From Minisyncoccota bacterium (lineage in GTDB: Bacteria > Patescibacteriota > Minisyncoccia > UBA6257), in the NCBI GenBank assembly GCA_028695015.1, contig JAQVJR010000001.1, positions 180,498-244,497 of the forward strand: a DNA stretch of 64,000 bases. The letters run 5' to 3'. The first letter of the stretch is position 1; the number at the start of each line of letters is the position of its first letter. Made by a program: the position numbers and the translations under genes. The notes under the pieces were generated by a model. That model saw nothing but the letters and a program-made list of their open reading frames with translations, did not search any database and was not told the DNA's origin. Below, in pieces: positions 35,548 to 48,789 of the stretch.

Positions 35548-36684
35548 TTAAATCTTTATTGGCATTAAGATATATACAAAGGTATCATCATCTTTATCTC
35601 TAATTAATCCAGGATTTGATTCTTTATTTAAGCCAATAAAAACTTCTTCATTTTTTACAGCATTTAATCCATCTAATAGAAATCTGTAATTAAAACTAAT
35701 TTCTAAAGCATTCCCTGATATTTCTTTTGGTATTAATACAGTCTGACTCTTGCCTAAAGTTAAATCCTGGGCTTCAAGAATAATTTCTTTTTTATCAGGA
35801 TTAAAACTGAATTTAACATCATTAACCCGACCGCTGAATAAACCTACTATCTTCACTGCTTCAGCTAATTCTTTTTTCTCAAAGACAATTTTATTCTCAA
35901 AATCCTTAGGAATAATTGAAGAATATTTTGGATAATCAGCATTGATTAAACGTGAAATAACTCGAATATTAGAAAAAGAAAATTGAATTTGATTTGATTC
36001 AGGAGTTATCCTGATTAAAGATTCATCACTTTCCATATTTTCTTGAACTAATCTTAAAACTTCTTGAGCTGTTCTTAAAGGAATAATTACTTCAATATCA
36101 TTTTTAATATTTGTTTTTACTTGAGAAGAAGGAAATACTTTTTCTGATAAACGAAAACTATCTGTACCTACTAGTTTTAATGTATTTTTACTTCCTGAGG
36201 TTTCTAATTTAAACAAAACCCCATTTAACTCAGCTTTTGGAGAAGAATAGCTCACACTGGGTAAAATTTGAATTAAAGCTTGTTCAAAATCACTTTTCCC
36301 TATTTCTATATATTTATCTGCTTTTGTTTCTGGAATAATAGGAAATTCTTCAGGATTAAATCCTTGAAAAGTTGTATTGTATTTCCCACTTTTAACAATT
36401 AGATTATTATTCTTTTCTTCTAAGCTTATCTTTTCTTCTGAAAGATTACTCAAGAAATTAGAAAAAGTTTTAGCTGGAATAACAAACTTACCTTCTTTTT
36501 CAGTTTTTCCAGTGATCACTAACTCAATTCCAATTTCCAAATCAGTAGCAAAGACATGAAGTTTATTAGTATTTGTTTTTAAAAGGATATTGCTTAAAAC
36601 AGGAAGAGTTAAATTTTTTCCAGTTATTTTCTCAGCAGAATTAATTGCTTTTTTAATTGTTTCCACCAAAGTAGTAAATTTCAT
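35548..36684 (-). CDS. dnaN: DNA polymerase III beta sliding clamp
   Basis: Three-domain ~378-aa clamp; MKFTTLVETIKKAINSAEKITGKNLTLPVLSNILL. Confidence 0.9.
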   Translation of the reverse strand: MKFTTLVETIKKAINSAEKITGKNLTLPVLSNILLKTNTNKLHVFATDLEIGIELVITGKTEKEGKFVIPAKTFSNFLSNLSEEKISLEEKNNNLIVKSGKYNTTFQGFNPEEFPIIPETKADKYIEIGKSDFEQALIQILPSVSYSSPKAELNGVLFKLETSGSKNTLKLVGTDSFRLSEKVFPSSQVKTNIKNDIEVIIPLRTAQEVLRLVQENMESDESLIRITPESNQIQFSFSNIRVISRLINADYPKYSSIIPKDFENKIVFEKKELAEAVKIVGLFSGRVNDVKFSFNPDKKEIILEAQDLTLGKSQTVLIPKEISGNALEISFNYRFLLDGLNAVKNEEVFIGLNKESNPGLIRDKDDDTFVYILMPIKI

Positions 36685-36952
36685 ATTTTTAATTATTTTA
36701 AATTTTTAATAATAAATTAATATATAATATAAATTATTGTTATAATTAGGGGCTTGTTTTTCTGGGGATAAACCTTTTTAATGTCTTTATTGAGTCTTTT
36801 CTCATGAATTAATATAGGGATAAAATGTTGAAAACTAATGGATATTTTGAGAACAATAAGTGGATTAAAACAGGTGAAAAGGATTTATTAAATTTATACA
36901 ACAAAAGATTCACTTCTAAAACACAATTTATTCACTAATTATCAACAAGGAA
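36685..36952. other. oriC: Putative oriC segment between dnaA and dnaN: AT-rich DUE plus DnaA-box-like 9-mers
   Basis: tggggataa (36761-36769), agggataaa (36814-36822), agtggatta (36857-36865), ttatcaaca (36937-36945) against consensus TTATCCACA/TGTGGATAA; AT-only stretch 36685-36745. Confidence 0.5.
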
Positions 36953-38323
36953 TTATTTGTTATAAATCATCTCTTTTAGGATATTTACTTCCTGAGCAAA
37001 TACTGGATTTTCTTCTATTTCTTTATTAATTTTTTTATAAGCATGAATAATTGTAGTATGATCTCGGTTCCCTATTTTTTCAGCAATATTAGTGTAAGAA
37101 TATTTAAATTCTTCTCTTAAGAGATACATTACAATTTGCCTTGGTTTTACTAGTTCTTTCTTTTTTGAATGTCCTAAAATTTCACTTTCACTTAAGTCAT
37201 AAAAAGAAGCAATCTTTTTTATAACCTCCTTAGGTGGGATATATTGATTAGTTTTATTTAAAATTAAAGATAAGATTTTCTTTACTTCATCAATAGTAAT
37301 CATTCCATTTTTTAATCGGGCATGAACGATAACTCTATTGAGGGCTCCTTCTAATTCTCTAATATTACGAGAAATAGTTTCAGCAATATATTTTAAAACA
37401 TCATCTCCAATTAAATGGCTTACTTCCTGGCTCTTGGCTTTTAAAATAGCTAAACGAGTTTCAAAATCAGGATAACCAATATCAGCAATCATCCCTCCTT
37501 CAAAACGAGACCTCAAACGTTCTTCAATTGAAGGAATGGATTTTGGTGGCCGATCAGAAGTAAAAACAATTTGTTTATTTTTTCCATGCAGATTATTAAA
37601 AGTATGAAAGAGTTCTTCTTGAGTTTTATCTTTCCCAGCAATAAATTGAATATCATCTATTAAAAGTAAGTCTAAATTACGAAAACTTTTTTTAAAATCA
37701 GTCATTTTCTGATTACGAATAGCATTAATAAGCTCATCAGTAAATTTCTCAGAAGAAGCATATTTAATTTTAAGTTTTTTATTTTCTGATTTTAATCGGT
37801 TACCAATGGCCTGTAATAAATGAGTTTTACCTAGCCCAACACCACCATAAATAAATAAAGGATTATATTTACTACCTAGGTTTTCTGTGATTGCTAAAGC
37901 AGCAGCATTAGCCAATTCATTATTAGTACCCACAATGAAATTTTCAAAAGTATATTTAGGATTTAAATTAGTGTCAGGATCAATATTAAATTCTAAGGGT
38001 TCATCCAGGACTGATGTTTTCTTTGATTGGATGGATTGTTTTTTCTTAACCTGACTAATTTTCTTAAGAGCGGTTTTATCTGTAGTTACAATGTATTCGA
38101 TTTGTTTTATTGTGGGCTCTAAGTTATAAAGAGCACCTAAGATTTGTTTATTATATTTATTTTTTAACCACTCTTTTGTAAAATTAGAAGGCACTCCTAA
38201 AAAAACAGTGCTTTCTTTAAAGTCCACAATAAAAGCGTCTTTAAACCAAGTTAAATAATTAGCCTTAGAAATATTTAATTTTATTTCTCCTAAAGCTGAT
38301 TCCCAGAGTTCTTGAAAATTCAT
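36953..38323 (-). CDS. dnaA: Chromosomal replication initiator DnaA
   Basis: AAA+ Walker A GGVGLGKTHLLQAIGN; C-terminal DNA-binding domain; divergent from rpmH. Confidence 0.95.
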   Translation of the reverse strand: MNFQELWESALGEIKLNISKANYLTWFKDAFIVDFKESTVFLGVPSNFTKEWLKNKYNKQILGALYNLEPTIKQIEYIVTTDKTALKKISQVKKKQSIQSKKTSVLDEPLEFNIDPDTNLNPKYTFENFIVGTNNELANAAALAITENLGSKYNPLFIYGGVGLGKTHLLQAIGNRLKSENKKLKIKYASSEKFTDELINAIRNQKMTDFKKSFRNLDLLLIDDIQFIAGKDKTQEELFHTFNNLHGKNKQIVFTSDRPPKSIPSIEERLRSRFEGGMIADIGYPDFETRLAILKAKSQEVSHLIGDDVLKYIAETISRNIRELEGALNRVIVHARLKNGMITIDEVKKILSLILNKTNQYIPPKEVIKKIASFYDLSESEILGHSKKKELVKPRQIVMYLLREEFKYSYTNIAEKIGNRDHTTIIHAYKKINKEIEENPVFAQEVNILKEMIYNK

Positions 38324-38412
38324 AAAATAAATTTAAATAACAATAATAATTAGTAGAAGTTAATATAAGTATAAAACAAATTAATTCTTCTTCCAAATTT
38401 TACAACCGGTTT

Positions 38413-38432
38413 AGTGGATAAAGTGTTGATAA
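38413..38432. promoter_or_regulatory. Two DnaA-box-like sites in the dnaA/rpmH divergent promoter region
   Basis: agtggataa (38413-38421) and tgttgataa (38424-38432), each 1 mismatch from TGTGGATAA. Confidence 0.45.
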
Positions 38433-38521
38433 TTAGTGAATTTGATATTATATAAAGATTTTGTTATGCTGTTTAGTACTGAAGAAATATTCCTAAATAA
38501 ATACAATTTAATTAATTCAAA

Positions 38522-38656
38522 ATGTCTGTTACTTATCAACCTAAAAAGAAAAAAAGAGCCCGAAAGCATGGATTTTTAAAAAGAATGTCCTCTTCTGGTG
38601 GTAAAAGAATTATCACTCATCGACGTAGAAAGAAAAGAAAAAAACTCAGTCCTTAA
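38522..38656 (+). CDS. rpmH: 50S ribosomal protein L34 (44 aa, below the ORF-track cutoff)
   Basis: My translation MSVTYQPKKKKRARKHGFLKRMSSSGGKRIITHRRRKKRKKLSP. Confidence 0.9.
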   Translation: MSVTYQPKKKKRARKHGFLKRMSSSGGKRIITHRRRKKRKKLSP

Positions 38657-38659
38657 AAT

Positions 38660-38692
38660 TGAGCTACTTTTAATAGCTCAAATTTTTTTATA
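38660..38692 (+). terminator. Hairpin gagctac...tagctc followed by a T-run between rpmH and rnpA (partial terminator or attenuator)
   Basis: Inverted repeat plus aaattttttta. Confidence 0.4.
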
Positions 38693-38704
38693 ATAAAATA
38701 ATCA

Positions 38705-39037
38705 ATGTTGCCTAAGAGTAATAGAATTAATTCTTCTATTATTTTCAAAGAAATTTTGCAACGAGGCCAAAGAAAAGAACATCTATATTTTAGAGTTTTG
38801 TTTCTAAAGAACAATCTTAAAAAATCTCGTTTTGCAGTTATTGTTAGTTCAAAAAATTATCGTTTGGCAGTAAAAAGAAATTTAATAAAAAGAAGAGTAA
38901 AAAATATTTTAAGAGAATTAATAAACTCTCTTCCCAAAGGTTTTGATGTTCTTATTTTCATTAAAAAAGATTGCCTTAATATAAGTTTCCAAGAGTTACA
39001 AACTCAGTTAAAAGAACTTTTACTAAGAATATTATAA
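38705..39037 (+). CDS. rnpA: Ribonuclease P protein component
   Basis: Basic 110-aa protein in the rpmH-rnpA position; RnpA-like region FAVIVSSKNYRLAVKRNLIKRRVKNILRE. Confidence 0.85.
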   Translation: MLPKSNRINSSIIFKEILQRGQRKEHLYFRVLFLKNNLKKSRFAVIVSSKNYRLAVKRNLIKRRVKNILRELINSLPKGFDVLIFIKKDCLNISFQELQTQLKELLLRIL

Positions 39038-39040
39038 AAA

Positions 39041-39721
39041 ATGATTCAATTATTAATTTATCAACCTCTGTACAATATTTTAACTGTTTTCCTAAATATC
39101 TTTCAGGGCGAATTAGGATGGGCGATTTTAGTTTTAGCAGCTTTAATTCGTTTTATTATTTGGCCTTGGCATCAAAAAGCAATGGATAATCAAAAAAAAA
39201 TATCTCAATTACAGCCAAAAGTCAAAGATATTCAGAATAAATACAAGCAAGATCCAGTAAAAGCCAATCAAGAAGTGATGAAGATATTTCAGGAAGAAAA
39301 CGTTAGCTTAGGAGGGGCTTATATTTTTTTGATCACTCAGCTCTTTATCTTTTTAAGTTTATTTGCATTTTTTAACCAAGCCATTAATAGTGATTGGTCC
39401 TCATTTCTTTATCCATTTATTAAGTTAAATACGGAAATAAACTATTTATTTCTAGGATTAATTGATTTAAAAATGCCTAGTTTAATTTTAGCTATTGTAT
39501 CTGCTTCTTTAAATTCAACCTTAGCTTTTTCTCAATCTTCAGTTGGGCAAAACAAAACGATGATGCTTCTTTTGCCTTTTATTATCTTGCTTTTTTATCA
39601 AAAATTCTCTGCAGTTGTTATTCTTTATTGGATAGGTTTTAGCTTAGTTAATATTTCACAAGAGTTTTTTATGAAATCCAGGAAAAAACAAGACATTGCT
39701 ACAAGTAATAATAAAATCTAA
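39041..39721 (+). CDS. yidC: Membrane protein insertase YidC (short form)
   Basis: Multi-TM 226-aa protein in the rnpA-yidC-jag context. Confidence 0.75.
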   Translation: MIQLLIYQPLYNILTVFLNIFQGELGWAILVLAALIRFIIWPWHQKAMDNQKKISQLQPKVKDIQNKYKQDPVKANQEVMKIFQEENVSLGGAYIFLITQLFIFLSLFAFFNQAINSDWSSFLYPFIKLNTEINYLFLGLIDLKMPSLILAIVSASLNSTLAFSQSSVGQNKTMMLLLPFIILLFYQKFSAVVILYWIGFSLVNISQEFFMKSRKKQDIATSNNKI

Positions 39722-39737
39722 TAAAGTTTTTATTTAA

Positions 39738-40211
39738 ATGAAAACAATAGAAATTAAACAATTTTTAGAAAATATTTTATCTATTATTGGGTTTTCAGAT
39801 TTTGAAATTAATATTCAAGAAAATCCTCAAGATAATTTAATACAAGTTTTTTTAAAAACTGATTCTCGAATTGATGACAGTGGTTTATTAATAGGTAGAG
39901 ATGGAGAGAATTTACAAGTTTTTGAATATCTTTTAAACATGTTTGTAAGAAAAAACGCCACAGAGATACAATGGCGTATTATTTTAGATATTAATAATTA
40001 TCGGGCAATTCAAGAAGAGAAATTAAGAGAATTTGCTAGGAAAATAGCTCATCAAGTAGCTTTAACTAATCAGATAATGGAATTACCTCCAATGAGAGCT
40101 CGAGACAGGAGAATTATTCATTTAGAAATTGCTTTAAGGAGTGATGTTATCACTGAAAGCATTGGTGAAAACAAAGAAAGACATATTGTAATTAGGCCTC
40201 AAGATAAATAA
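39738..40211 (+). CDS. jag: Jag/KhpB-like RNA-binding protein (KH + R3H)
   Basis: Position after yidC; R3H-like C-terminus RDRRIIHLEIAL. Confidence 0.7.
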   Translation: MKTIEIKQFLENILSIIGFSDFEINIQENPQDNLIQVFLKTDSRIDDSGLLIGRDGENLQVFEYLLNMFVRKNATEIQWRIILDINNYRAIQEEKLREFARKIAHQVALTNQIMELPPMRARDRRIIHLEIALRSDVITESIGENKERHIVIRPQDK

Positions 40212-40219
40212 TTTTTTTA

Positions 40220-41080
40220 TTAAGAACAAAAGAAGGCTCCACCAGTTTTACAATTAGGCATATTAATCTCAAGATGAAAACCACTTCCATATTGAGATCC
40301 TTCTGGGGAGTATTCATCTATAACATCAAAGCCAGATGCATTAGCAGCTTTAATAAAGGCTGTTCTTGTTGTAATGCCTGGGTCTTTACCAAATCCCACA
40401 TCAACACAAGTACCAATTTTATGACAATTTGATACATGATGAACTGTGGTAATGCATTCATTTCCAATAACTGAGACACAAGCTTCTGTGACCTGCCATC
40501 CCTTTGGAGCATTACTATTAACTAATTTTAATAAACTTTCAGCAACACTTTCTTCAATATAAGCTCCATTAGGAAATTCCCAACTCAATGGGATATTAGA
40601 ATATTTTCCAGAACCTGCTCCAATTAAAACAAAATCACCTACAATTACCGGCAATTGTTCCGTTTCTATTGGTGGCTTAACTGTTGTTGGTTTTGGCTCA
40701 GGTGTTGTTTTGAGAAGATTTGGATTAATTGTGTTTAGGATAAGCCAAAAAGAAAACAATAAAACAATTCCAATAAAAGTATTAATAATTCTTTCCTGGG
40801 CTTCTTTTTGTTGTTCAACATTTCCACCAGCAGTAAGATATTGAAATCCAGCATAAATAATCATAATAAAAGCGAATAATCCAGCTAATCTAAAAGCCCA
40901 TAGAACTAGGTATTTAACTAACTCTTCTATTGCATTTTTAGTTTGAAATTCAATTACCTCATAAGAATTAGTGACAGCTTCAACAACTAATCCTTGGCTA
41001 AAATTTAAACAACAAGCGAATACAATCAATAACAGAGTGATATTCTTAAAATTACAATACTGATTTAAAGACAGAAACAT
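40220..41080 (-). CDS. Membrane-anchored protein: N-terminal signal plus two hydrophobic helices (VirB2/TrbC pilin-like topology) fused to a C-terminal LAS/M15-like zinc-peptidase domain; candidate T4SS-associated cell-wall hydrolase
   Basis: Signal-like MFLSLNQYCNFKNITLLLIVFACC; helices LVLWAFRLAGLFAFIMIIYAGF and FIGIVLLFSFWLIL; C-terminal SNCHKIGTCVDV (HxxG, H-x6-D) and GFHLE (HxE), resembling VanY/M15 SxHxxGxAxD...WHxE. Confidence 0.4.
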   Translation of the reverse strand: MFLSLNQYCNFKNITLLLIVFACCLNFSQGLVVEAVTNSYEVIEFQTKNAIEELVKYLVLWAFRLAGLFAFIMIIYAGFQYLTAGGNVEQQKEAQERIINTFIGIVLLFSFWLILNTINPNLLKTTPEPKPTTVKPPIETEQLPVIVGDFVLIGAGSGKYSNIPLSWEFPNGAYIEESVAESLLKLVNSNAPKGWQVTEACVSVIGNECITTVHHVSNCHKIGTCVDVGFGKDPGITTRTAFIKAANASGFDVIDEYSPEGSQYGSGFHLEINMPNCKTGGAFFCS

Positions 41081-41088
41081 TTATTGTT

Positions 41089-41991
41089 TTATTTAAATTT
41101 TAATATTTGTCCTGGTTTAAAAAATCCAGGTAAACCAACCTCCCATTCAAAAAATCGAAATGTAGGCACAGGTATTGTTTGCACCAATTCTTCTACAGTT
41201 TGTTTTGTTGAATAAGCACCTAAAGAAGCTAATAACTCTTTTAGGATTATGGGGCAAGCTTGACCAATAGCCATGGAAACAGGAACTCCTAATCCCCAAG
41301 GAAGAGCAGTAGCTGCATTTGATAACATTCCACAAATCCAATCAACATCTAAACCAACGCCTAATAAATCTAAGAACTTATCCTGAACTAAATCACCTAT
41401 ATCACCAAATTGAAGTGCTGCCTCAAGAAAATCTGAACGCAAGTTTTCAGGAATTGGCGATCCTTGATTGATAACATTTTTTAATATGTTTTTATCAGTA
41501 ACAGAAAAATTACCTTTATCTGCTATTTTATTAAAATATCCTTGTAGCTTTTCTGGAATGTCTTTTCCTTTTTGAATAACATCTTCTACTTCATCATATA
41601 ATTCTGTTGTAATCCCAGAAACATCTGCCAAGTCTTGTAAGGTTTTAATATTTTTAGCAGCTTCAGTTTGAGCAGCAGATTGCTCTACTGAGCCCACAAT
41701 ATAAACAGGTTGTGCTTCGCCTCCACCACAACCACATCCTGGATTTAAAGGCAAAGGGTCAGTAAGAGCTGGAGATTCTCCAGAACATTTATTCTTACAG
41801 AGAGCTTTACAAGTATATTCTCCATTTTCATCATCTCGATAACATTCTTTGGTTTCTGAATTACAAGAATAACGAGCTTGGGAAGCAGCCAAAGCTTCTT
41901 TGGTTATTAATAAGTTCCAAAAAAACAAATTCACAACAAACACAATTAGAAAAAATACAGATATCTTATTATAAAAATTTGTTTGTTTCAT
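41089..41991 (-). CDS. Secreted Cys-rich hypothetical protein (T4SS-like locus)
   Basis: Signal peptide; N-terminal Cys cluster YSCNSETKECY...CKALCKNKCSG...GCGCGGG. Confidence 0.45.
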   Translation of the reverse strand: MKQTNFYNKISVFFLIVFVVNLFFWNLLITKEALAASQARYSCNSETKECYRDDENGEYTCKALCKNKCSGESPALTDPLPLNPGCGCGGGEAQPVYIVGSVEQSAAQTEAAKNIKTLQDLADVSGITTELYDEVEDVIQKGKDIPEKLQGYFNKIADKGNFSVTDKNILKNVINQGSPIPENLRSDFLEAALQFGDIGDLVQDKFLDLLGVGLDVDWICGMLSNAATALPWGLGVPVSMAIGQACPIILKELLASLGAYSTKQTVEELVQTIPVPTFRFFEWEVGLPGFFKPGQILKFK

Positions 41992-42021
41992 ATTTTTATT
42001 TATTTATTTTTAAAATTATTT

Positions 42022-42444
42022 TTATGCTTTAGAAGATTTTTTAGTAATTTTTTCAACAACTCCTTGTGATAAATAAGCAAAAATAACAGTTCCAGTGGTA
42101 ATTGGCAAAATACTAGCAATAGGCAATAAGTCTATTAATTGACCACTTAGGATTAATTTTGTTCTCATGCCAGTGATAATACTAATAAATAATATATAAG
42201 CGGAAAAAGGAAGAGCTATTAACCAAACAAAAAACTGAATTCCTGGAATTAAGCCCAAAACTACTTCTATAATATCCTTCATTATAGCAGGGATAAGAAG
42301 CAAAAGAAAGATAATAATATCCATCTTTTTTTCCTTTGGCTTTGTTTCTGGTGCTTTCTCTTCAGGGGAGGTTTCTTTTTCCTCAAGTCCTGTTGGTTGT
42401 TGTTCTATCAAAGATTCTTCTTTATTTGGTGTTTGTTCTGTCAT
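42022..42444 (-). CDS. Small polytopic membrane protein with acidic N-terminus (T4SS-like locus)
   Basis: About 3 TM segments (IIIFLLLLIPAIM, FFVWLIALPFSAYILFISII, LLPIASILPITTGTVIFAYL). Confidence 0.4.
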   Translation of the reverse strand: MTEQTPNKEESLIEQQPTGLEEKETSPEEKAPETKPKEKKMDIIIFLLLLIPAIMKDIIEVVLGLIPGIQFFVWLIALPFSAYILFISIITGMRTKLILSGQLIDLLPIASILPITTGTVIFAYLSQGVVEKITKKSSKA

Positions 42445-42454
42445 TAATATTTAA

Positions 42455-44251
42455 TTAAGACTCAGATTTTAATTGCTTTTTCGCTTCTTTAATAGCTAAA
42501 AGCTGAGCAGGATTTGAAGTGATAATTTGGTCCTCAGCATAAGAAGCTACAATTTGAATAGCCGCATGTTTTTCTTGGGCAAAAAATAAACCAGTGCCCA
42601 CAGGAGATTGCAAGAGAATTGTTTTTTCTTGCTCAGTAAGATTTAAAGCTTTACCGATTATTTCTATATTTGCTGGAGATTGGCGAAGCAATAATGACAG
42701 GGAAGAATTAGTAATAATAGGTTTACCATAAGGAGAAGCCAAGGCATCTTCAATGTCTTGAGTAATAAAGGTAACTCCTAAATAATATTTTCTAGCTCTT
42801 TTTATTAAACTAAATAAGAAAGAAGCACTTTCCTCATGATTTAAGAGCCACCAACCTTCATCAATAATAGCAATTCTTTTTCTAAGATCTTTCTTTATCA
42901 TTGTCCAGATATAGTTCAAAACAACATACATGGCAATAGGTCTTAATTCATCTGCCAATTCCCTAATGCCAAAAACAACTAGTCGGTTATTAATATCAAT
43001 ATTTGATTGTTTATTAAGAAAACCAGCATAAGTTCCTTTAGTGAATTTATAAAGTTTAGCTGCTAAATCTTCTCCCCCCTCAATATTTTCAAGAACATTT
43101 TCTAAATCTTCCATTAAAGGTGGTGCTTTTTGTTCAGTCATGTTTTCAGGAAAAATATCCCGACTGGCATAAGTTTGAATAATGGCTTGATCTAAAATTA
43201 ATTCTTCTTGAGGGGTTAATCCGCCAAGCATTAATTTAATAAGTCCAATAAGACTCAAGACATGATTTCTAAAAACTTCTTCATTTGTTTCCTCTTCTTC
43301 TTTTACCAGAGGCAATTCAAAAGGATTAATATTATCTTCAGAAGCCACAGCAATATTAAAATAGCTGCCACCAATTGATTCAGCTAAATATTGATATTCA
43401 TTTTCCGGATCAATAATTAAAATATTAGTACCTAATAAAAGAGAGCGGAGAATTTCTAATTTAATAGCATAGCTTTTCCCAGCTCCAGTTTGAGCAAAAA
43501 CTACCATATTTGCATTTGGAAGAGAAAAGCGGTCAAAAATTATTAGACTATTATTATGGATATTAATGCCATAAAGAATTCCTTTATTATCTGAAAGATC
43601 TAAAGAAGAAAAAGGGAAAAGTGTAGATGCTGGTTGAGAATTTAAAGGCGTAGTTAAAAGCAATCTATTAACCCCAAGAGGCATAGTGCTTTCTAATCCT
43701 TCAAATTCTCTAAAAACAGCAGGTTTAGCATAAATAAGTTGTTGCTCTAATATGTTTCGGATTTTACTCTCTACTTTTGAAAGCCCTTCTTGGCTGTTAG
43801 AATAAAAAGTGATATAAACACCAACATCAAATAATCTCTCACTGCCTTGTTGAATTGTATCTCTTAATTTCTCAACATTAGATAAAGCTGCTTCTAATAA
43901 AGGATTACGAACTAATCCTCTTTCAGCTTCAATATTAATCTGAGCTTGAATTTCCGCAGATTTTTTCCTTAAATTTCTTAAAACTTTATTAATATCAAGA
44001 GGATGGAAAAAGATAGAAATATTAAAAGATTCATCAAGATTAACAATCGAAGAAAACCAATTAGAGGCTAAATAATCTGGATAAGTTAAAACAAAAAGAG
44101 TAGCACAATATTGCTCTCCTAATTTAAGGTAATTTGTGTTTATTTCTAATCCAGCTGGAGCAATTAAGTTCTGAAGTGTAGAAAAAGCTTCAGTATAAAT
44201 AGCTTCCTGAGGTTTTATTTGTTTTTTCCGTGAGAAGAAAGGTAATTTCAT
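42455..44251 (-). CDS. virB4: VirB4/TrbE-family conjugative ATPase, C-terminal 598-aa part (gene split, see 44263..44952)
   Basis: Walker A VVFAQTGAGKSYAI; Walker B region IAIIDEGWWLL; N-terminal APAGLEINTNYLKLGEQYCATLFVLTYPDYL typical of Gram-positive VirB4. Confidence 0.75.
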   Translation of the reverse strand: MKLPFFSRKKQIKPQEAIYTEAFSTLQNLIAPAGLEINTNYLKLGEQYCATLFVLTYPDYLASNWFSSIVNLDESFNISIFFHPLDINKVLRNLRKKSAEIQAQINIEAERGLVRNPLLEAALSNVEKLRDTIQQGSERLFDVGVYITFYSNSQEGLSKVESKIRNILEQQLIYAKPAVFREFEGLESTMPLGVNRLLLTTPLNSQPASTLFPFSSLDLSDNKGILYGINIHNNSLIIFDRFSLPNANMVVFAQTGAGKSYAIKLEILRSLLLGTNILIIDPENEYQYLAESIGGSYFNIAVASEDNINPFELPLVKEEEETNEEVFRNHVLSLIGLIKLMLGGLTPQEELILDQAIIQTYASRDIFPENMTEQKAPPLMEDLENVLENIEGGEDLAAKLYKFTKGTYAGFLNKQSNIDINNRLVVFGIRELADELRPIAMYVVLNYIWTMIKKDLRKRIAIIDEGWWLLNHEESASFLFSLIKRARKYYLGVTFITQDIEDALASPYGKPIITNSSLSLLLRQSPANIEIIGKALNLTEQEKTILLQSPVGTGLFFAQEKHAAIQIVASYAEDQIITSNPAQLLAIKEAKKQLKSES

Positions 44252-44262
44252 AATAGTATTAT

Positions 44263-44952
44263 TTATTCATTAAGTTCTGAAGGGATAGGAATAGATTCTC
44301 TTTCAAAAGTTTCTGGATTGTATAAATTAAAAAACAATTCTATCAATTCTTTAGTTGTTAAAGGTTGAGCTTGTAAGTTCATACGATTGAAATTATTTAT
44401 AACATTGCTTTGGCGAATCATTAGTTGCTGATAATATTGGTTAAATTCATCATTAGATAAAGAAAGAGTTTTAGAAAAAGCCTGATGTTTTAAATTAAGC
44501 AGGTTTTTATATGCCTCTACTATTTGTCCAAAAATGTCTTTTGGTTTAAGGATAATAGGATCATAAGGAATCACCACATAGAATTTTTTCTTCATAATAT
44601 TGCTTTCAGTAACTAATCCTTTAATAAAAGAATGATAGTCCTCTCCTTGTAATTTAAGTAAAGTATTTGTTTCTTGATTAATTTTTTCCTGAAGAAAATT
44701 TAAATAAGAAGCAATATGAACACGGCGTGAATGGGCAATAACTTCTAATGTAAAATCTAAGTTATTTAATAAATTACGCCAATTAGTTAAAATACTAAGT
44801 TGTTCTTGTTCTGATTTTAAATCTAAATTTATTCCAGAAACAGCTAAAACAGAACGCAAGGATCCGTTTTTTAATATAACAACTCCTTTTTTAATTTGAT
44901 GAATAGAAAGAAGTGATTGACTACTAAAACTTTCTTTTTGTTTTTGAGGCAT
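44263..44952 (-). CDS. virB4: VirB4 N-terminal fragment (229 aa) as a separate ORF in a different frame
   Basis: IHQIKKGVVILKNGSLRSVLAVSGINLDLKSEQEQ...FYVVIPYD resembles the N-terminus of Firmicutes-type VirB4/TcpF/PrgJ; 11-nt gap to the next ORF. Confidence 0.55.
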   Translation of the reverse strand: MPQKQKESFSSQSLLSIHQIKKGVVILKNGSLRSVLAVSGINLDLKSEQEQLSILTNWRNLLNNLDFTLEVIAHSRRVHIASYLNFLQEKINQETNTLLKLQGEDYHSFIKGLVTESNIMKKKFYVVIPYDPIILKPKDIFGQIVEAYKNLLNLKHQAFSKTLSLSNDEFNQYYQQLMIRQSNVINNFNRMNLQAQPLTTKELIELFFNLYNPETFERESIPIPSELNE

Positions 44953-44953
44953 T

Positions 44954-45352
44954 TTATTTATCTAAAATTTCAGTTAATTTTTGAAGGGTTTCTTTATCTA
45001 AAGATTTTTGAGTGGTCACTGTTTCACTTTTCTCATGTTTGGATGAAAGAACTTGAGAAGGTTTTTTTATAACTTGTTCTTTTTGCCAAAGATAATATTT
45101 TGGTAGCCAAAAATGACGAAAAGCAGATAGAATCAGAGCATAAATTGGTTGATTATGTAATTGGCCAAACGTAAGAAATAATCCAAATGGGGCTATAAAT
45201 GCAAAAACAATAAACCAAAGCCATAATTGTAAAATAAAAAACAAGATAACAAGAATAATAGCAAAACCTAATAAAATCCAAAGCTGGGTAAAGGTAACTA
45301 ATCCCATTAATTTAGTTTCTTCTTCTATAAATTTTGGTACTTGATAGGCCAT
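44954..45352 (-). CDS. VirB3/PrgI-like small 2-TM protein
   Basis: MAYQVPKFIEEETKLMGLVTFTQLWILLGF, then two hydrophobic helices; positioned just 5' of virB4. Confidence 0.5.
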   Translation of the reverse strand: MAYQVPKFIEEETKLMGLVTFTQLWILLGFAIILVILFFILQLWLWFIVFAFIAPFGLFLTFGQLHNQPIYALILSAFRHFWLPKYYLWQKEQVIKKPSQVLSSKHEKSETVTTQKSLDKETLQKLTEILDK

Positions 45353-45358
45353 AATTAA

Positions 45359-46396
45359 TTATGATGTTTTTCCAAAAGGACTTTCCTTTTTATACTTTTC
45401 ATATTGAACCGGCTTAGGATCAAATTCTTTTTCCTTTGATCTTTTTTTCATCTCTTGTAATTTAACATCCAGAACATAAGGTTTTTTATCAGGAGATTTT
45501 TGAATTGGTTTTTCACTTGTAAATTCTTCACCTCTACCTGTTAAAACAGTAGAAGGTTCTGTTTCTGGTACTTTCTTTCTTTCTAAAGGTTTTTCTTCTA
45601 CAGCTTCTTTATCTTCTTTTTTAGATTTTAAAACTTTTTTGATTTCCTCTACAATTTTAGGTTGAGCATCTTTTTTAGTTATGGCCTCTAATAGCTTATT
45701 ACGGATTTTTTCTTGCTTGATTAATGTTGTTTCTGGCACGGTAACTTTTTTAAGCTCTTCTATTTTATTTATTGGTTTTGTTACCTTAACTTCTGTTGGC
45801 TCAGGGGCAATGTATTCAGGAATTGGTTCAGGCTTAATGATTTCTGATTCTGGAATCCTTGCTTGAGGTTTTTCTGTTTGTGGCTTAATAGTTTTGGATT
45901 GAGGCATAGTAAATTTGTCTAAAGGTTCTTTTAGTGCCTCTGGCTTTATTTTTTCTGCAATAGATTGAATATCAATTTCTGTAATTTGATTTTTTTCAGA
46001 AAGTTCTTTTTTAGGCTTTTTTTCAAAACTACCCAAAGCTGGTGTTTTAAATTGTATTGGTGGTTTTTCTTGAGAAATGGTTGGTCTAGATTTAAACTGC
46101 AGTAAGTCTTTTTTGTATTGATCAAAGATTTTATCTTGAATTATCTGATTGATAATTTTTAAAGAAGAATCTTTAATTTTTAAATGAGATTTTAGTTTCA
46201 ATGCAAAGTCATCAGAGGAAATATTTAATAAAAGAACATCAGTAACAATTTCATTTAAGATAAATAGTTCCTCTTCATTTAAACCAGCAAGAGAGCCAGC
46301 ATCTTGGATAATAGAAATAACTTTATCAGAATAAAGGGCTTCTTGGAGAGATTTTGGCAAAACATCAAACTTTTTTAAAAACTCTTCTTTTTTCAT
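45359..46396 (-). CDS. Hypothetical K/E/P-rich protein (T4SS-like locus)
   Basis: N-terminal ~100-aa folded-looking domain, then a low-complexity KPE-rich region; no TM segment. Confidence 0.4.
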   Translation of the reverse strand: MKKEEFLKKFDVLPKSLQEALYSDKVISIIQDAGSLAGLNEEELFILNEIVTDVLLLNISSDDFALKLKSHLKIKDSSLKIINQIIQDKIFDQYKKDLLQFKSRPTISQEKPPIQFKTPALGSFEKKPKKELSEKNQITEIDIQSIAEKIKPEALKEPLDKFTMPQSKTIKPQTEKPQARIPESEIIKPEPIPEYIAPEPTEVKVTKPINKIEELKKVTVPETTLIKQEKIRNKLLEAITKKDAQPKIVEEIKKVLKSKKEDKEAVEEKPLERKKVPETEPSTVLTGRGEEFTSEKPIQKSPDKKPYVLDVKLQEMKKRSKEKEFDPKPVQYEKYKKESPFGKTS

Positions 46397-48789
46397 TCTT
46401 CTTTAAAAATGTTATCCCATGTTGAAGCATCAGATGTGTTTTCTAAATCAATGCCGCTTTCTTCTCTTAATGCCCGAGAATCTTTAATGTGTTTATTGAA
46501 TTTTGCTAATGTTGCAGGATCTCTCTTAATAGATTCTATGAAGAGTTTTTGTTTTTCCTCATCAAAATATTTTGGTCCTAAACCTTTCCAAAAAGCAGCC
46601 ATTTGTGAAGCTGAGAATTTTTTAACCAAAGATTGAAAAACTTTATCATAAGCTTCTTCCATGGCTTTTTCTGTTTCATGGGGCAACCAAGCTCCTTGCT
46701 CAATTGATTTTTGATATTCTTTGTCTATAGTTTTTTCAACAAAATCTTTTAATTGGGTTTTATCTTTTAATTTATCAGGTTTTAATGAAGTTAAGGTGGT
46801 TACCTTTTCTTCTATAGAATCTGGAGTGTTAATTAATCTTCCTCCTTCTACTCTAAATTCATGAGGGATTGCTTCAGTGATAGCTTTTTTATTAAACCTA
46901 ATATCATCTTTGTGAAGATTGATGAATTTTGTAGATTCATCTCCTAGTTCTCCCATTTCTGCTAATTTATTAACCAAAGCAATTCTTTTTTCATAGGCAT
47001 TTTTATCCAATGAAGATGGTAAAGGAGCTTTTTCGAGTTGCTTTAAGCTACCTAAGCTTATATTCTCTAAGCCTTTTTCATATTCTTTAACTCTAGTTGC
47101 CTTAGCTTTTTCTCCAGTTACTAGCATTTCTTGGCCAACACCTTTTAATAAAGGAACATGGGTTAAAGCTTCACCTGCTTTTTTATACATTCCAGTTTCC
47201 TTAATTCCCTTAATTGTTTTAGCTCCAACAAAGGCTCCAGCTAGCCATCCAGCTCGACTAACTTGTTTTTGAACAACTTTTCCCACAGCACCACTACTTT
47301 GAATAGAAACAATTAACCCTCCAATTAAAAACATAGAAAAGAGAACTATTTGAATAATCATTGTAATAATGCCCAATTTCTCCTCTTGGGCGCCAAGATT
47401 TGCAAGAAAAACATTCATTTCAGATACAACAACAAGCCCTGCATACAAGGAAACGGCAAAAGTAATAGGAAAAAGACACCATCTAGAAAATTGTCCCCAC
47501 CATAAATTCCAAAACTTTTCAGTGTTTGGTAACACCCATGCAGCAAAAGCAATAGGTGAAACAGCAAGTAAGATAATAATGAGAAAAGACCGAGCAACCA
47601 TAACAAAGAAAATAGCGATTAAAGAGATGAAAACAAATAATCCAATTATACCTAAAGCAGCGATAATAAGAAGGAAATTACCCCAAGAAAGACCCCAGCC
47701 TTTTGTGCTCATCTTAATGTCTTGTCCTTCTACAGTTATAGTTTTAATTTCAGCTTTATCATCATAAGCAAAATTATATTTTTTAACGCCTGAAATTTCA
47801 TTAGTAGCAAAATTATCCATAATTGCTTGAGCAATGTCTTTTTGGCCAGTTGCTTCTTGAGCTAGATTCAAAAATACATAAGTAGTAAATTGAGAAAGAT
47901 CCAGTAATATGCCTGGTAAAATCAAACTAAAGTTAATAAGTAAAGCAATAACTATTAATTTCCAAAGAATATCTTGCCAGCGATATTTTTTAATCCCTAA
48001 AATAGTCGCAATAGCTATAATTATTAAGATTAAAACAAGGGCTAAATTCATAAAATTTCTTAAGATGCTCCAAATTGCTACTACCCCAGGATTTTTAACA
48101 AATCCTCCATAAGTATCAGGGTTTAAAGCCCAAAGAATATTTCCTGTTAATGTATTAATCATTCCACCGATCATTTTTCCAAGTCCTTCAATAGCTCCTA
48201 TTTGAACCAAACAAGCTTTATGTGCCCACCAAGTATCGTTTGCGTTTTTGTCTGATAACCATCCGAAAATTTCAGCAAACCTGTTTTTTGGATTTTCATC
48301 CCCATAAAAAAGAGCATTACAAATTTTTGCAGCATTTGATTCTTGGGCTGTGCCAACTACATCTTCAACATATCCTTCTCGATGAAACTTATCAGTGGCA
48401 ATATTCATACAACACATTCGTGGTATATTACGAACTGGACCACAAAGCTCAGCTCCTTGTACTATTTCTTCTCCTGGAAGACAAGCGATTCTGCATATAT
48501 ATCCAGCTTGCTCACAAGCAGATTTTGATTTTAATTTTTGCTGATCTACCCATGATTCATAATTAAATTTCTCAGGGACACAGCAATTGGTATTTAAAAA
48601 ACTTCCTGTACAGGTAAGCCGTGACTCAAATTTTTCATCATCATTACATCCTGGTCGACATGTTCCCCCAGCTTCAGTGCAAGAATAAGCAGATGCTTGT
48701 AAATTATTGAATTTAAAAACAGGGCTTATTAATAAAAACAAAAGGATAGTGCCAAAAATCCCAATTTTAAATACATTTTTTATTTTCAT
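46393..48789 (-). CDS. virB6: VirB6/TrbL-like polytopic membrane protein with duplicated N-terminal 6-Cys ectodomain modules and long C-terminal cytoplasmic tail
   Basis: Signal peptide; modules CTEAGGTCRPGC...C...CC and CEQAGYICRIAC...C...CC; at least 6 TM helices in the middle; 798 aa. Confidence 0.55.
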   Translation of the reverse strand: MKIKNVFKIGIFGTILLFLLISPVFKFNNLQASAYSCTEAGGTCRPGCNDDEKFESRLTCTGSFLNTNCCVPEKFNYESWVDQQKLKSKSACEQAGYICRIACLPGEEIVQGAELCGPVRNIPRMCCMNIATDKFHREGYVEDVVGTAQESNAAKICNALFYGDENPKNRFAEIFGWLSDKNANDTWWAHKACLVQIGAIEGLGKMIGGMINTLTGNILWALNPDTYGGFVKNPGVVAIWSILRNFMNLALVLILIIIAIATILGIKKYRWQDILWKLIVIALLINFSLILPGILLDLSQFTTYVFLNLAQEATGQKDIAQAIMDNFATNEISGVKKYNFAYDDKAEIKTITVEGQDIKMSTKGWGLSWGNFLLIIAALGIIGLFVFISLIAIFFVMVARSFLIIILLAVSPIAFAAWVLPNTEKFWNLWWGQFSRWCLFPITFAVSLYAGLVVVSEMNVFLANLGAQEEKLGIITMIIQIVLFSMFLIGGLIVSIQSSGAVGKVVQKQVSRAGWLAGAFVGAKTIKGIKETGMYKKAGEALTHVPLLKGVGQEMLVTGEKAKATRVKEYEKGLENISLGSLKQLEKAPLPSSLDKNAYEKRIALVNKLAEMGELGDESTKFINLHKDDIRFNKKAITEAIPHEFRVEGGRLINTPDSIEEKVTTLTSLKPDKLKDKTQLKDFVEKTIDKEYQKSIEQGAWLPHETEKAMEEAYDKVFQSLVKKFSASQMAAFWKGLGPKYFDEEKQKLFIESIKRDPATLAKFNKHIKDSRALREESGIDLENTSDASTWDNIFKEE

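Follow-up and report, generated by a model that had tools for sequence, protein, structure and literature searches.

A probable two-gene VirB4 in the origin-proximal type IV secretion module of a Paceibacteria-type genome

The two reading frames and the module around them

The window analysed here, a 64,000-nt stretch of contig JAQVJR010000001.1 from a Minisyncoccota bacterium, carries two adjacent minus-strand open reading frames of 229 and 598 aa (hereafter the N piece and the C piece, the latter with the Walker A motif GAGKS), separated by an 11-nt gap and a change of frame. This arrangement had been described in the first-pass annotation and is borne out by both the ORF list and the sequence. 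No single polypeptide of ~800 aa combining a full N-terminal domain with the ATPase is encoded; each of the two frames has its own start and stop. The features of the region, in positions of the window, are as follows.

46393..48789, minus strand: VirB6/TrbL-like polytopic membrane protein, 798 aa (NCBIfam MMCAP2_0566 conjugal transfer family, 7.2e-8; orthologues with PF19590 TrbL_3)
45359..46396, minus strand: module gene of unassigned function, 345 aa, Lys/Glu/Pro-rich (no Pfam match; a 296–339 aa gene at the equivalent place in relatives)
44954..45352, minus strand: PrgI/VirB3-like small membrane protein, 132 aa (Pfam PrgI, 5.9e-5; NF045975 positions 16–125)
44263..44952, minus strand: N piece, 229 aa, TrsD-like, putative first N-terminal subdomain of VirB4 (ORF list, profiles, AF2 model)
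44252..44262, minus strand: intercistronic spacer, 11 nt, A/T-rich, from the N-piece TAA to the C-piece ATG (sequence)
42455..44251, minus strand: C piece, 598 aa, VirB4 body comprising the CagE_TrbE_VirB (middle) subdomain and the P-loop ATPase domain (ORF list, Pfam, PDB, NCBIfam)
42022..42444, minus strand: small membrane protein, 140 aa, 3' of the ATPase (a 122–145 aa gene at the equivalent place in relatives)
41089..41991, minus strand: secreted or membrane module protein, 300 aa (a syntenic 231–309 aa gene in relatives)
40220..41080, minus strand: VirB2-like T4SS pilin, 286 aa (Pfam PF18895 T4SS_pilin, 2.6e-13)
39738–40211: Jag/KhpB, origin region
39041–39721: YidC, origin region
38705–39037: RnpA, origin region
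36953–38323, minus strand: DnaA, origin region
35548–36684, minus strand: DnaN, origin region (35548..40211 as a whole)

The N-piece ORF, which includes GVVILKNGSLRSVLAVSGINLDLKSEQEQ, runs into the C piece as ...AAT GAA TAA ataatactatt ATG AAA..., with no Ns at the junction, and the C-piece ATG is out of frame with it (44952 − 44251 = 701; 701 mod 3 = 2). The C-piece frame contains two stops (TAA TGA) 5–6 codons 5' of its ATG, and the N-piece frame, after its TAA, meets another stop 5 codons on, so that the two frames could be joined by a single-base error only within an interval of 1–2 nt. A Shine–Dalgarno motif was sought before the C piece and was absent, which is normal and uninformative here because the genome's genes generally do without such motifs.

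The surroundings are those of a mating-pair-formation cluster, with PrgI-like, TrbL/VirB6-like and T4SS_pilin genes flanking the VirB4 pair. The PrgI/VirB3-like gene lies directly 5' of the N piece and is syntenic in every related locus examined. All eight module genes are intact, in the same order as in relatives and with similar lengths, and no relaxase was found among the module genes and the flanks scanned. The DnaN–DnaA–RnpA–YidC–Jag/KhpB neighbourhood recurs in related loci (L001–L006, L044 and L045).

Homology of the two pieces to VirB4

By sequence comparison, the C piece is homologous to VirB4 far beyond chance. It matches P-loop_TraG of Pfam (4.8e-25), the VirB4 structure PDB 4AG5 (1e-40 over residues 219–578, with ATPase motifs in common) and the NCBIfam model of CD1110-type VirB4, NF045971 (357.8 bits against a cutoff of 325), and its Walker A motif, FAQTGAGKSYA, stands at about residue 263 of the 598. 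It has what is expected of the VirB4/TraC/CagE family, namely a P-loop ATPase domain (Walker A/B) with homology to the C-terminal domain of VirB4. The CD1110-type match covers profile positions 185–729 of 752, and on full-length VirB4 models in general the C piece alone starts at about position 185–235. Its best 120 homologues are nearly all of this short form (565–607 aa in 117), together with two truncations of 496–500 aa and one fused protein of 788 aa.

The N piece is a more remote relative, which is detected by some methods and not by others. A local Pfam scan assigned it to no family, while precomputed Pfam annotation gives PF26593 TraC-like / PF27097 VirB4_TrbE_N. PDB sequence searches with the single N piece or with its 90-sequence profile found no VirB4, the profile finding nothing at all. 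On the CD1110-type VirB4 profile it occupies positions 9–118 of 752. The TrsD model NF041427 matches it at 34.8 bits (E 1.4e-8, profile positions 9–103 of 201), far below the curated cutoff of 200 bits for this TrsD/TraD family, on which TrsD of plasmid pGO1 scores 227.6 bits, so the homology to TrsD is remote and the N piece falls outside the family as curated. Its AF2 model has a pLDDT of 89.7, and the only significant PDB fold matches obtained with Foldseek are TrwK/VirB4 chains; since Foldseek gives no TrwK residue range, the placement of the N piece at the VirB4 N-terminus is taken from the HMM profile coordinates.

Considered together, the two pieces fall on colinear, consecutive and non-overlapping parts of full-length VirB4 profiles, and on the profile of the Mycoplasma VirB3–VirB4 fusion (NF045975) the N piece covers positions 97–273 and the C piece 284–893. 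An AF2 model of the N+C concatenation, an artificial single chain built on an input alignment of naturally fused homologues, aligns with the 799-residue TrwK over 830 columns (E 6e-26, TM 0.58/0.60). Residues 228–252 of this model, which include the junction, have pLDDT below 50, and the cut between the pieces is accordingly predicted to fall in a disordered linker.

These mappings bear on the alternative in which the N piece would be an added paralogue, or an accessory factor, that resembles the VirB4 N-terminus, with the 598-aa protein forming by itself a complete, if short, VirB4. TrsD has been described as a protein of unassigned function with only 'remote homology' to the N-terminal part of VirB4 (Quiñonero-Coronel et al., 2025, Microb Genom, PMC12102498), and the C-terminal domain of Thermoanaerobacter pseudethanolicus VirB4 was solved in isolation (4AG5), both of which would fit this alternative. 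We nevertheless consider this reading unlikely, because the pieces divide full-length VirB4 profiles between them instead of overlapping, the C piece by itself begins well inside those models, natural fused homologues are colinear with N+C, and the concatenated model spans the whole of TrwK.

Conservation of the junction and the reading of the split

The first-pass annotation had left three options open, namely a genuine two-piece VirB4, a sequencing frameshift and early pseudogenisation of the module, and had recommended a comparison with orthologous loci. In that comparison, the N piece ended at its own stop and the C piece began at its own start in 40 of 40 related loci with both genes on one strand, drawn from independent assemblies. 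Spacers in these loci measure 1, 2, 3, 4, 5, 7, 9, 11, 12, 15, 33, 58, 63, 88, 126 or 155 nt, all three relative frames (0, 1, 2) occur, and the stop may be TAA, TAG or TGA. In a further locus (L042) the N and C genes are divergently transcribed from opposite strands. The closest genome match is a Candidatus Paceibacterota MAG (L007; 99% amino-acid identity), whose N and C proteins are both 99% identical to those of the window at a dS of 0.29–0.39. Across comparisons with dS up to ~2, dN/dS is 0.01–0.16 for the N and C pieces alike.

The separation also extends far beyond these relatives. The best 120 N-piece matches, whose identities range from 100% to 63%, are without exception stand-alone proteins of 225–229 aa, and a search of 1.84 billion cluster representatives returned 1591 matches. 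Among the best 150 of these 1591, the 28 proteins of 302–797 aa were read in sequence: 24 are N pieces with a disordered tail at the C-terminus, three are extended at the N-terminus and one is a fused protein of 797 aa; nearly all of the rest are 196–260 aa long and are called stand-alone by length alone, the remainder being nine unread proteins of 270–301 aa and three short fragments. The N piece stays a separate gene among cluster representatives down to ~31% identity. Both genes are intact, purifying selection on them is strong, and hundreds of lineages keep them separate.

An unsplit VirB4 of 775–807 aa occurs in a Colwellbacteria-like clade (P0129, P0377). Together with the tiny spacer of the window, these fused versions from another Patescibacteria clade could suggest that programmed ribosomal frameshifting or stop-codon bypass yields one fused polypeptide here as well. 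We regard this as very improbable: with the C piece in frame 0, +1 or +2 among relatives, spacers of up to 155 nt that contain further stops, and divergent genes in one lineage, no slippery or bypass site and no frame relation could be conserved across the junctions, and in the window itself the C frame is closed by its two stops just 5' of the ATG.

A sequencing or assembly frameshift that cut one virB4 gene in two is hardly credible, although two ORFs in different frames only 11 nt apart are what such an error would leave and errors of this kind do occur in MAGs. Two 600-aa 'C-only' calls in the fused clade (P0408 and P0504) were considered as recurrent recent fission and rejected, as both adjoin 100-N assembly gaps; true artefacts with 100-N gaps (loci L046 and L047) contrast with the clean junction of the window. 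The recurrence of the stop and start in every same-strand locus, with spacer, frame and stop codon varying, refutes the artefact, as do the narrow interval of 1–2 nt within which an indel would have to lie and the absence, from naturally fused relatives, of the ~25 residues found at the ends of the split pieces. Decay of the T4SS module with virB4 as the first gene to break can be dismissed with similar firmness, since nothing except the split itself speaks for it, whereas both pieces are under the constraint described above, the N piece is still its own gene in distant homologues, and none of the eight module genes is disrupted, the sign of a decaying locus that the first-pass annotation had proposed to look for.

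Judged by its conservation, the purifying selection on both pieces, their colinear mapping onto VirB4 domains and the structure models, the locus very probably encodes a genuine two-gene VirB4 within a chromosomal, origin-proximal T4SS module of a Paceibacteria-type (Patescibacteria/CPR) genome. The VirB4 motor would then be made as two separately translated polypeptides, a TrsD-like protein of 229 aa and a protein of 598 aa that carries the rest of the N-terminal domain and the P-loop ATPase. Because the cistrons are tightly packed, one operon would be expected to yield the two products in matched amounts, and these may then associate non-covalently to restore the N-terminal domain of VirB4. 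In the R388 system, the VirB4 N-terminal domain docks the ATPase onto VirB3 and the membrane complex; the counterpart of VirB3 for such docking would here be the PrgI-like protein encoded just upstream.

Comparison with known systems

Canonical single-chain VirB4 proteins such as TrwK of R388 (PDB 7O41/8RTD) have an overall fold in common with the N+C model, at a TM of ~0.6 over ~830 columns, and the PrgI-like protein, N piece and C piece of the window map in that order onto the Mycoplasma VirB3–VirB4 fusion profile. The partitioning of domains is nevertheless opposite to that of the VirB3–VirB4 fusions, in that the window shows a fission and not a fusion, and sequence identity to these proteins is 13–16%.

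The unsplit VirB4 of Candidatus Colwellbacteria and related Patescibacteria lies in the same synteny (PrgI, then VirB4, then Jag–YidC–RnpA–DnaA) and is 50–58% identical to, and colinear with, the N+C of the window. It differs in being one polypeptide with a linker shorter by ~25 residues, without the N-piece tail and the C-piece leader MKLPFFSRKKQ.... In a neighbour-joining tree (a fast distance method, with bootstrap) the fused clade is sister to the clade of the window with 48% support, and because the tree is this rough the direction of change, fission or fusion, is something we infer.

A split at the same point is found in the Staphylococcus aureus plasmid pGO1, where trsC (VirB3-like), trsD (227 aa) and trsE (a 672-aa ATPase) follow in the same order and the breakpoint between TrsD and TrsE matches that between the N and C pieces. 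In hhalign, the 90-sequence N-piece profile aligns with TrsD at a probability of 89.9 (E 1.7e-6) over 175 columns, query 9–206 against TrsD 32–217; this alignment takes in the LKSE.EQ and ELIELFY..YNP motif regions, and the homology spans the full length of TrsD. The C piece and TrsE align beginning with the first residue of each (E 2e-37), and on the CD1110 profile TrsE covers positions 183–730, its start at 183 comparing with 185 for the C piece. In both systems the gene for a protein of ~225 aa thus has a VirB3-like gene on one side and, on the other, the gene for a short VirB4-like ATPase (~600–670 aa) that starts as TrsE does. The similarity is remote, with identities of 19% for the N piece against TrsD and 25% for the ATPase, and plasmid pGO1 is conjugative and, by MOB typing, has relaxases, whereas the module of the window is chromosomal and near oriC. 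TrsD and TrsE of pGO1 belong to MPF_FATA, pGO1 subclass, and TraD and TraE of pSK41 and pIP501 are their equivalents. TraD of the pELF plasmid is a different, VirD4-like protein, which has no bearing on the TrsD/TraD discussed here.

The best reading of TrsD is that it supplies the N-terminal part missing from a split VirB4, a modest clarification for T4SS biology. As to its history, we tentatively suggest, with somewhat less than even confidence, that the TrsD|TrsE boundary goes back to one ancient fission of VirB4 at a disordered linker, common to pGO1/pIP501-type Gram-positive plasmids and most Patescibacteria and marking a common origin, with later re-fusion in the Colwellbacteria-like clade. 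TrsD would then be the first VirB4 N-terminal subdomain turned into a separate protein, coupling the ATPase to VirB3/PrgI, and the free ends at the cut may have allowed lineage-specific disordered tails to arise on both pieces, as in Berkelbacteria-like loci. The occurrence of split and fused architectures within Patescibacteria offers a natural test bed for the assembly of the VirB4 N-terminal domain with VirB3.

In annotation, the two ORFs should be left unmerged and their junction given neither a frameshift flag nor a pseudogene call, and we suggest naming the 229-aa gene TrsD-like / VirB4 N-terminal-subdomain protein. The first-pass annotation was right to entertain a split gene, and what it missed was the correspondence to TrsD/TraD and the earlier description of this arrangement in Patescibacteria. 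TrsD homologues beside virB4 and near dnaA have been reported there as the commonest T4SS component, and the homologue in Southlakia epibionticum (S. epibionticum) is listed as essential (PMC12102498). The two-gene VirB4, a TrsD-like protein plus an ATPase body, is the normal form in most ultra-small Patescibacteria and is already known. What is added here to that work is the colinear, complementary mapping and the common breakpoint, which spell out the 'split VirB4' reading; the phrase 'split VirB4' was not found in the literature searched, and 'TrsD' is absent from the main text of Guglielmini (2014). The chromosomal cluster of the window, with its TrsD homologue adjoining virB4 and its VirB2-like pilin near dnaA, corresponds closely to the Patescibacteria T4SS of that report (PMC12102498): it has the same gene set, VirB6-like, PrgI/VirB3-like, TrsD-like, VirB4 and VirB2-like pilin (PF18895), in the same location beside Jag–YidC–RnpA–DnaA, and nothing essential is different between the two.

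The two genes and their share of VirB4

VirB4 coding sequence is divided here between two neighbouring ORFs, termed the N piece (TrsD-like) and the C piece (ATPase), which lie within a T4SS module together with the genes listed below.

Genes of the T4SS module discussed in the text
46393-48789, minus strand: VirB6/TrbL-like protein, 798 aa, polytopic membrane region
44954-45352: PrgI-like protein, just upstream of the N piece, matching positions 16-125 of NF045975 (894 positions)
44263..44952, minus strand: N piece, 229 aa (ORF listing), sequence starting MPQKQKESF...GVVILKNGSLRSVLAVSGINLDLKSEQEQ
42455..44251, minus strand: C piece, 598 aa (ORF listing), Walker A motif FAQTGAGKSYA

The junction reads ...AAT GAA TAA ataatactatt ATG AAA TTA..., with an 11-nt spacer and a shift of frame. 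The N-piece frame ends in TAA, with a second stop five codons further on, and the C-piece frame carries a TAA TGA stop pair 5-6 codons before its ATG; the first-pass annotation, which had described two adjacent ORFs in different frames separated by 11 nt, was therefore exact. Shine-Dalgarno-like motifs are nearly absent upstream of window genes, which have A/T-rich leaders instead (54 ORF starts), so the A/T-rich spacer is an ordinary start context. Only ~6/54 window ORFs have a match of at least 4 nt to the AAGGAGGTGA core, and initiation in this genome may be SD-independent.

The C piece is a VirB4-type ATPase: Pfam returns P-loop_TraG (4.8e-25), AAA_10 and DUF87, and CagE_TrbE_VirB weakly at residues 44-171, the NCBIfam model 'VirB4-like conjugal transfer ATPase, CD1110 family' scores 357.8 bits (cutoff 325), and the Thermoanaerobacter pseudethanolicus VirB4 C-terminal domain (4AG5) aligns with residues 219-578 at 1e-40, with TrwK of R388 as a further match. 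A search of the N piece against a local copy of Pfam gave no match; its homologues carry the precomputed annotations PF26593 (TraC-like) and PF27097 (VirB4_TrbE_N), and the NCBIfam TrsD/TraD family is matched at E 1.4e-8, well under the model cutoff. On the CD1110 model the N piece occupies positions 9-118 of 752, in the N-terminal part, and the C piece 185-729; on the Mycoplasma ICE VirB4 model (NF045975) they occupy 97-273 and 284-893 of 894. The pieces are therefore consecutive and do not overlap, as a true split predicts, and since the PrgI-like protein, N piece and ATPase fall in order on NF045975, three genes here correspond to one Mycoplasma ICE protein.

Structure prediction points the same way. 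An AlphaFold2 model of the N piece (90-sequence alignment, mean pLDDT 89.7) was searched against the PDB with Foldseek, and its only significant matches were TrwK/VirB4 chains of the R388 T4SS (top match 8rtb_A, E 2.4e-4, probability 1.00, TMq 0.52, 218 columns). An artificial N+C concatenation, modelled from an alignment of naturally fused homologues (mean pLDDT 77.5), aligned with the 799-residue TrwK over 830 columns (E 6e-26, TM 0.58/0.60), and on these models the two pieces would jointly make one complete VirB4 fold. Low pLDDT (< 50) at residues 228-252, the N-piece tail and C-piece leader, indicates that the cut falls in a disordered linker.

Conservation of the junction and the competing readings

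The best 120 database homologues of the N piece (100% to 63% identity), from Paceibacterota/Patescibacteria assemblies, are without exception 225-229 aa long and stand alone. Across 1.84 billion cluster representatives, 1591 matches were obtained; within the top 150, the sequences of 28 longer proteins (302-797 aa) were read, and 24 consisted of an N piece followed by a disordered C-terminal tail rich in Pro/Gln/Thr, three (P0136, P0202, P0247) had a long N-terminal extension preceding it, and one, P0129 (797 aa), was fused. Nearly all others measured 196-260 aa, stand-alone status being judged from length alone, with nine of 270-301 aa left unread and three short fragments. The best 120 C-piece matches comprise 117 of 565-607 aa, two truncations (496-500 aa) and one fused protein.

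Orthologous loci, the comparison proposed in the first-pass annotation, agree with this picture. Where both genes share a strand (six metagenomic contigs and 34 species-representative genomes), 40/40 loci have an N-piece stop and a separate C-piece start, with spacers of 1, 2, 3, 4, 5, 7, 9, 11, 12, 15, 33, 58, 63, 88, 126 and 155 nt, all three relative frames, and TAA, TAG and TGA stops. In the related locus L042 (CAYXKF010000003.1, 1437-4615), a 626-aa VirB4 ATPase gene (minus strand) diverges from the plus-strand PrgI-like gene and 207-aa N piece; the VirB4 halves are in separate transcription units in this lineage.

Three readings had been offered for the split, of which a genuine split gene is the sole survivor. 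Early pseudogenisation is contradicted by dN/dS of 0.01-0.16 in both pieces and by the remaining module genes, all intact and syntenic with relatives. Constraint is unusually strong against the nearest genome, L007 (JAQVJU010000001.1, Candidatus Paceibacterota MAG, STE_70), where both proteins are 99% identical at dS 0.29-0.39 and dN/dS ~0.01; this divergence shows that the window belongs to a different genome from L007. A sequencing error shared among genomes that cuts one virB4 in two, and programmed frameshifting across the junction, are both excluded by the varying spacers, frames and stops together with the L042 divergence.

Individual loci show further variation. In Berkelbacteria-like and related loci (L028-L040) the N piece has a disordered C-terminal tail of 60-200 aa, rich in Pro/Gln/Thr/Ala, and the spacers, reaching 155 nt, are longer; in L031-L040 the ATPase also has a disordered N-terminal extension of 100-200 aa. 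Low-complexity tails have therefore grown on both of the free ends that the split made. The N-piece homologue in L034 (JAQVAO010000041.1, coverage 2.8) contains an in-frame stop (…VQSR*LDL…) at a position occupied by K in P0170, the database protein; the stop probably reflects a sequencing error at low coverage or local pseudogene formation.

Fused relatives

A search with P0129 showed that unsplit VirB4 (775-807 aa) is common in another, large Patescibacteria clade, some members labelled Candidatus Colwellbacteria or Parcubacteria; 118/120 of its best matches (100% down to 59% identity) are fused. The fused proteins P0129 and P0377 share 60% identity through the junction, and the fused state is therefore real. 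Its linker is ~25 residues shorter than the split forms' tail and leader combined, and in L044 and L045 the fused gene has the same origin-proximal chromosomal context as the split pair. True artefacts occur in this clade: in virB4 genes that are otherwise fused, 100-N runs inside the N-terminal region (L046 ~1545-1647, L047 ~1802-2008) lead gene callers to output 600-aa 'C-only' proteins (P0408, P0504) beside assembly gaps, mimicking a split. A rough NJ tree was built from the ATPase region with TrsE as the root; in it the fused clade (79% bootstrap) sits among split lineages, with other split lineages nearer the root and weak support (48%) for its exact position. Parsimony favours an ancestral split and would place re-fusion later.

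Module context, assembly and known systems

The analysis establishes two genes that are separately terminated and initiated, strongly constrained, and jointly colinear with VirB4. As tightly packed cistrons they could be co-expressed, and their products may associate non-covalently, rebuilding the VirB4 N-terminal domain. In R388 structures (7O41, 8RTD) this domain touches VirB3 and the membrane complex; here the PrgI-like product of the adjoining upstream gene may be its partner.

Within 35548-48789, the whole module (VirB6-like, an unknown gene, PrgI, N piece, ATPase, two small genes, pilin) directly adjoins Jag-YidC-RnpA-DnaA-DnaN at the chromosomal replication origin, a synteny shared by all long related contigs. 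In the VirB6/TrbL-like protein, two Cys-rich repeats (…CTEAGGTCRPGCNDDE…C…CC… and …CEQAGYICRIACLPGEE…C…CC…) lie between an initial signal-like segment and the polytopic membrane region, and the gene overlaps the next by 4 nt (ATGA, 46393-46396).

The Staphylococcus aureus plasmid pGO1 has the order trsC (135 aa), trsD (227 aa), trsE (672 aa, DUF87 ATPase). The N-piece profile aligns with TrsD end to end (hhalign probability 89.9, E 1.7e-6), residue 1 of TrsE aligns with residue 1 of the C piece (E 2e-37), and the two ATPases start at 183 and 185, respectively, on the CD1110 profile; the cut site is therefore the same. In Patescibacteria the TrsD homologue mostly adjoins virB4, the T4SS cluster, whose position next to replication-origin genes has been noted before, often lies beside dnaA, and in S. 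epibionticum the TrsD homologue is on the essential list (Quiñonero-Coronel et al. 2025, PMC12102498). The window matches that published context exactly (DnaN, DnaA, RnpA, YidC, Jag, then pilin to VirB6-like). This arrangement is normal for the lineage and had been published before; the present analysis adds the explicit demonstration that the TrsD-like protein and the ATPase correspond to a complete VirB4, the breakpoint common to the window and pGO1, and the presence of both split and fused forms in Patescibacteria.
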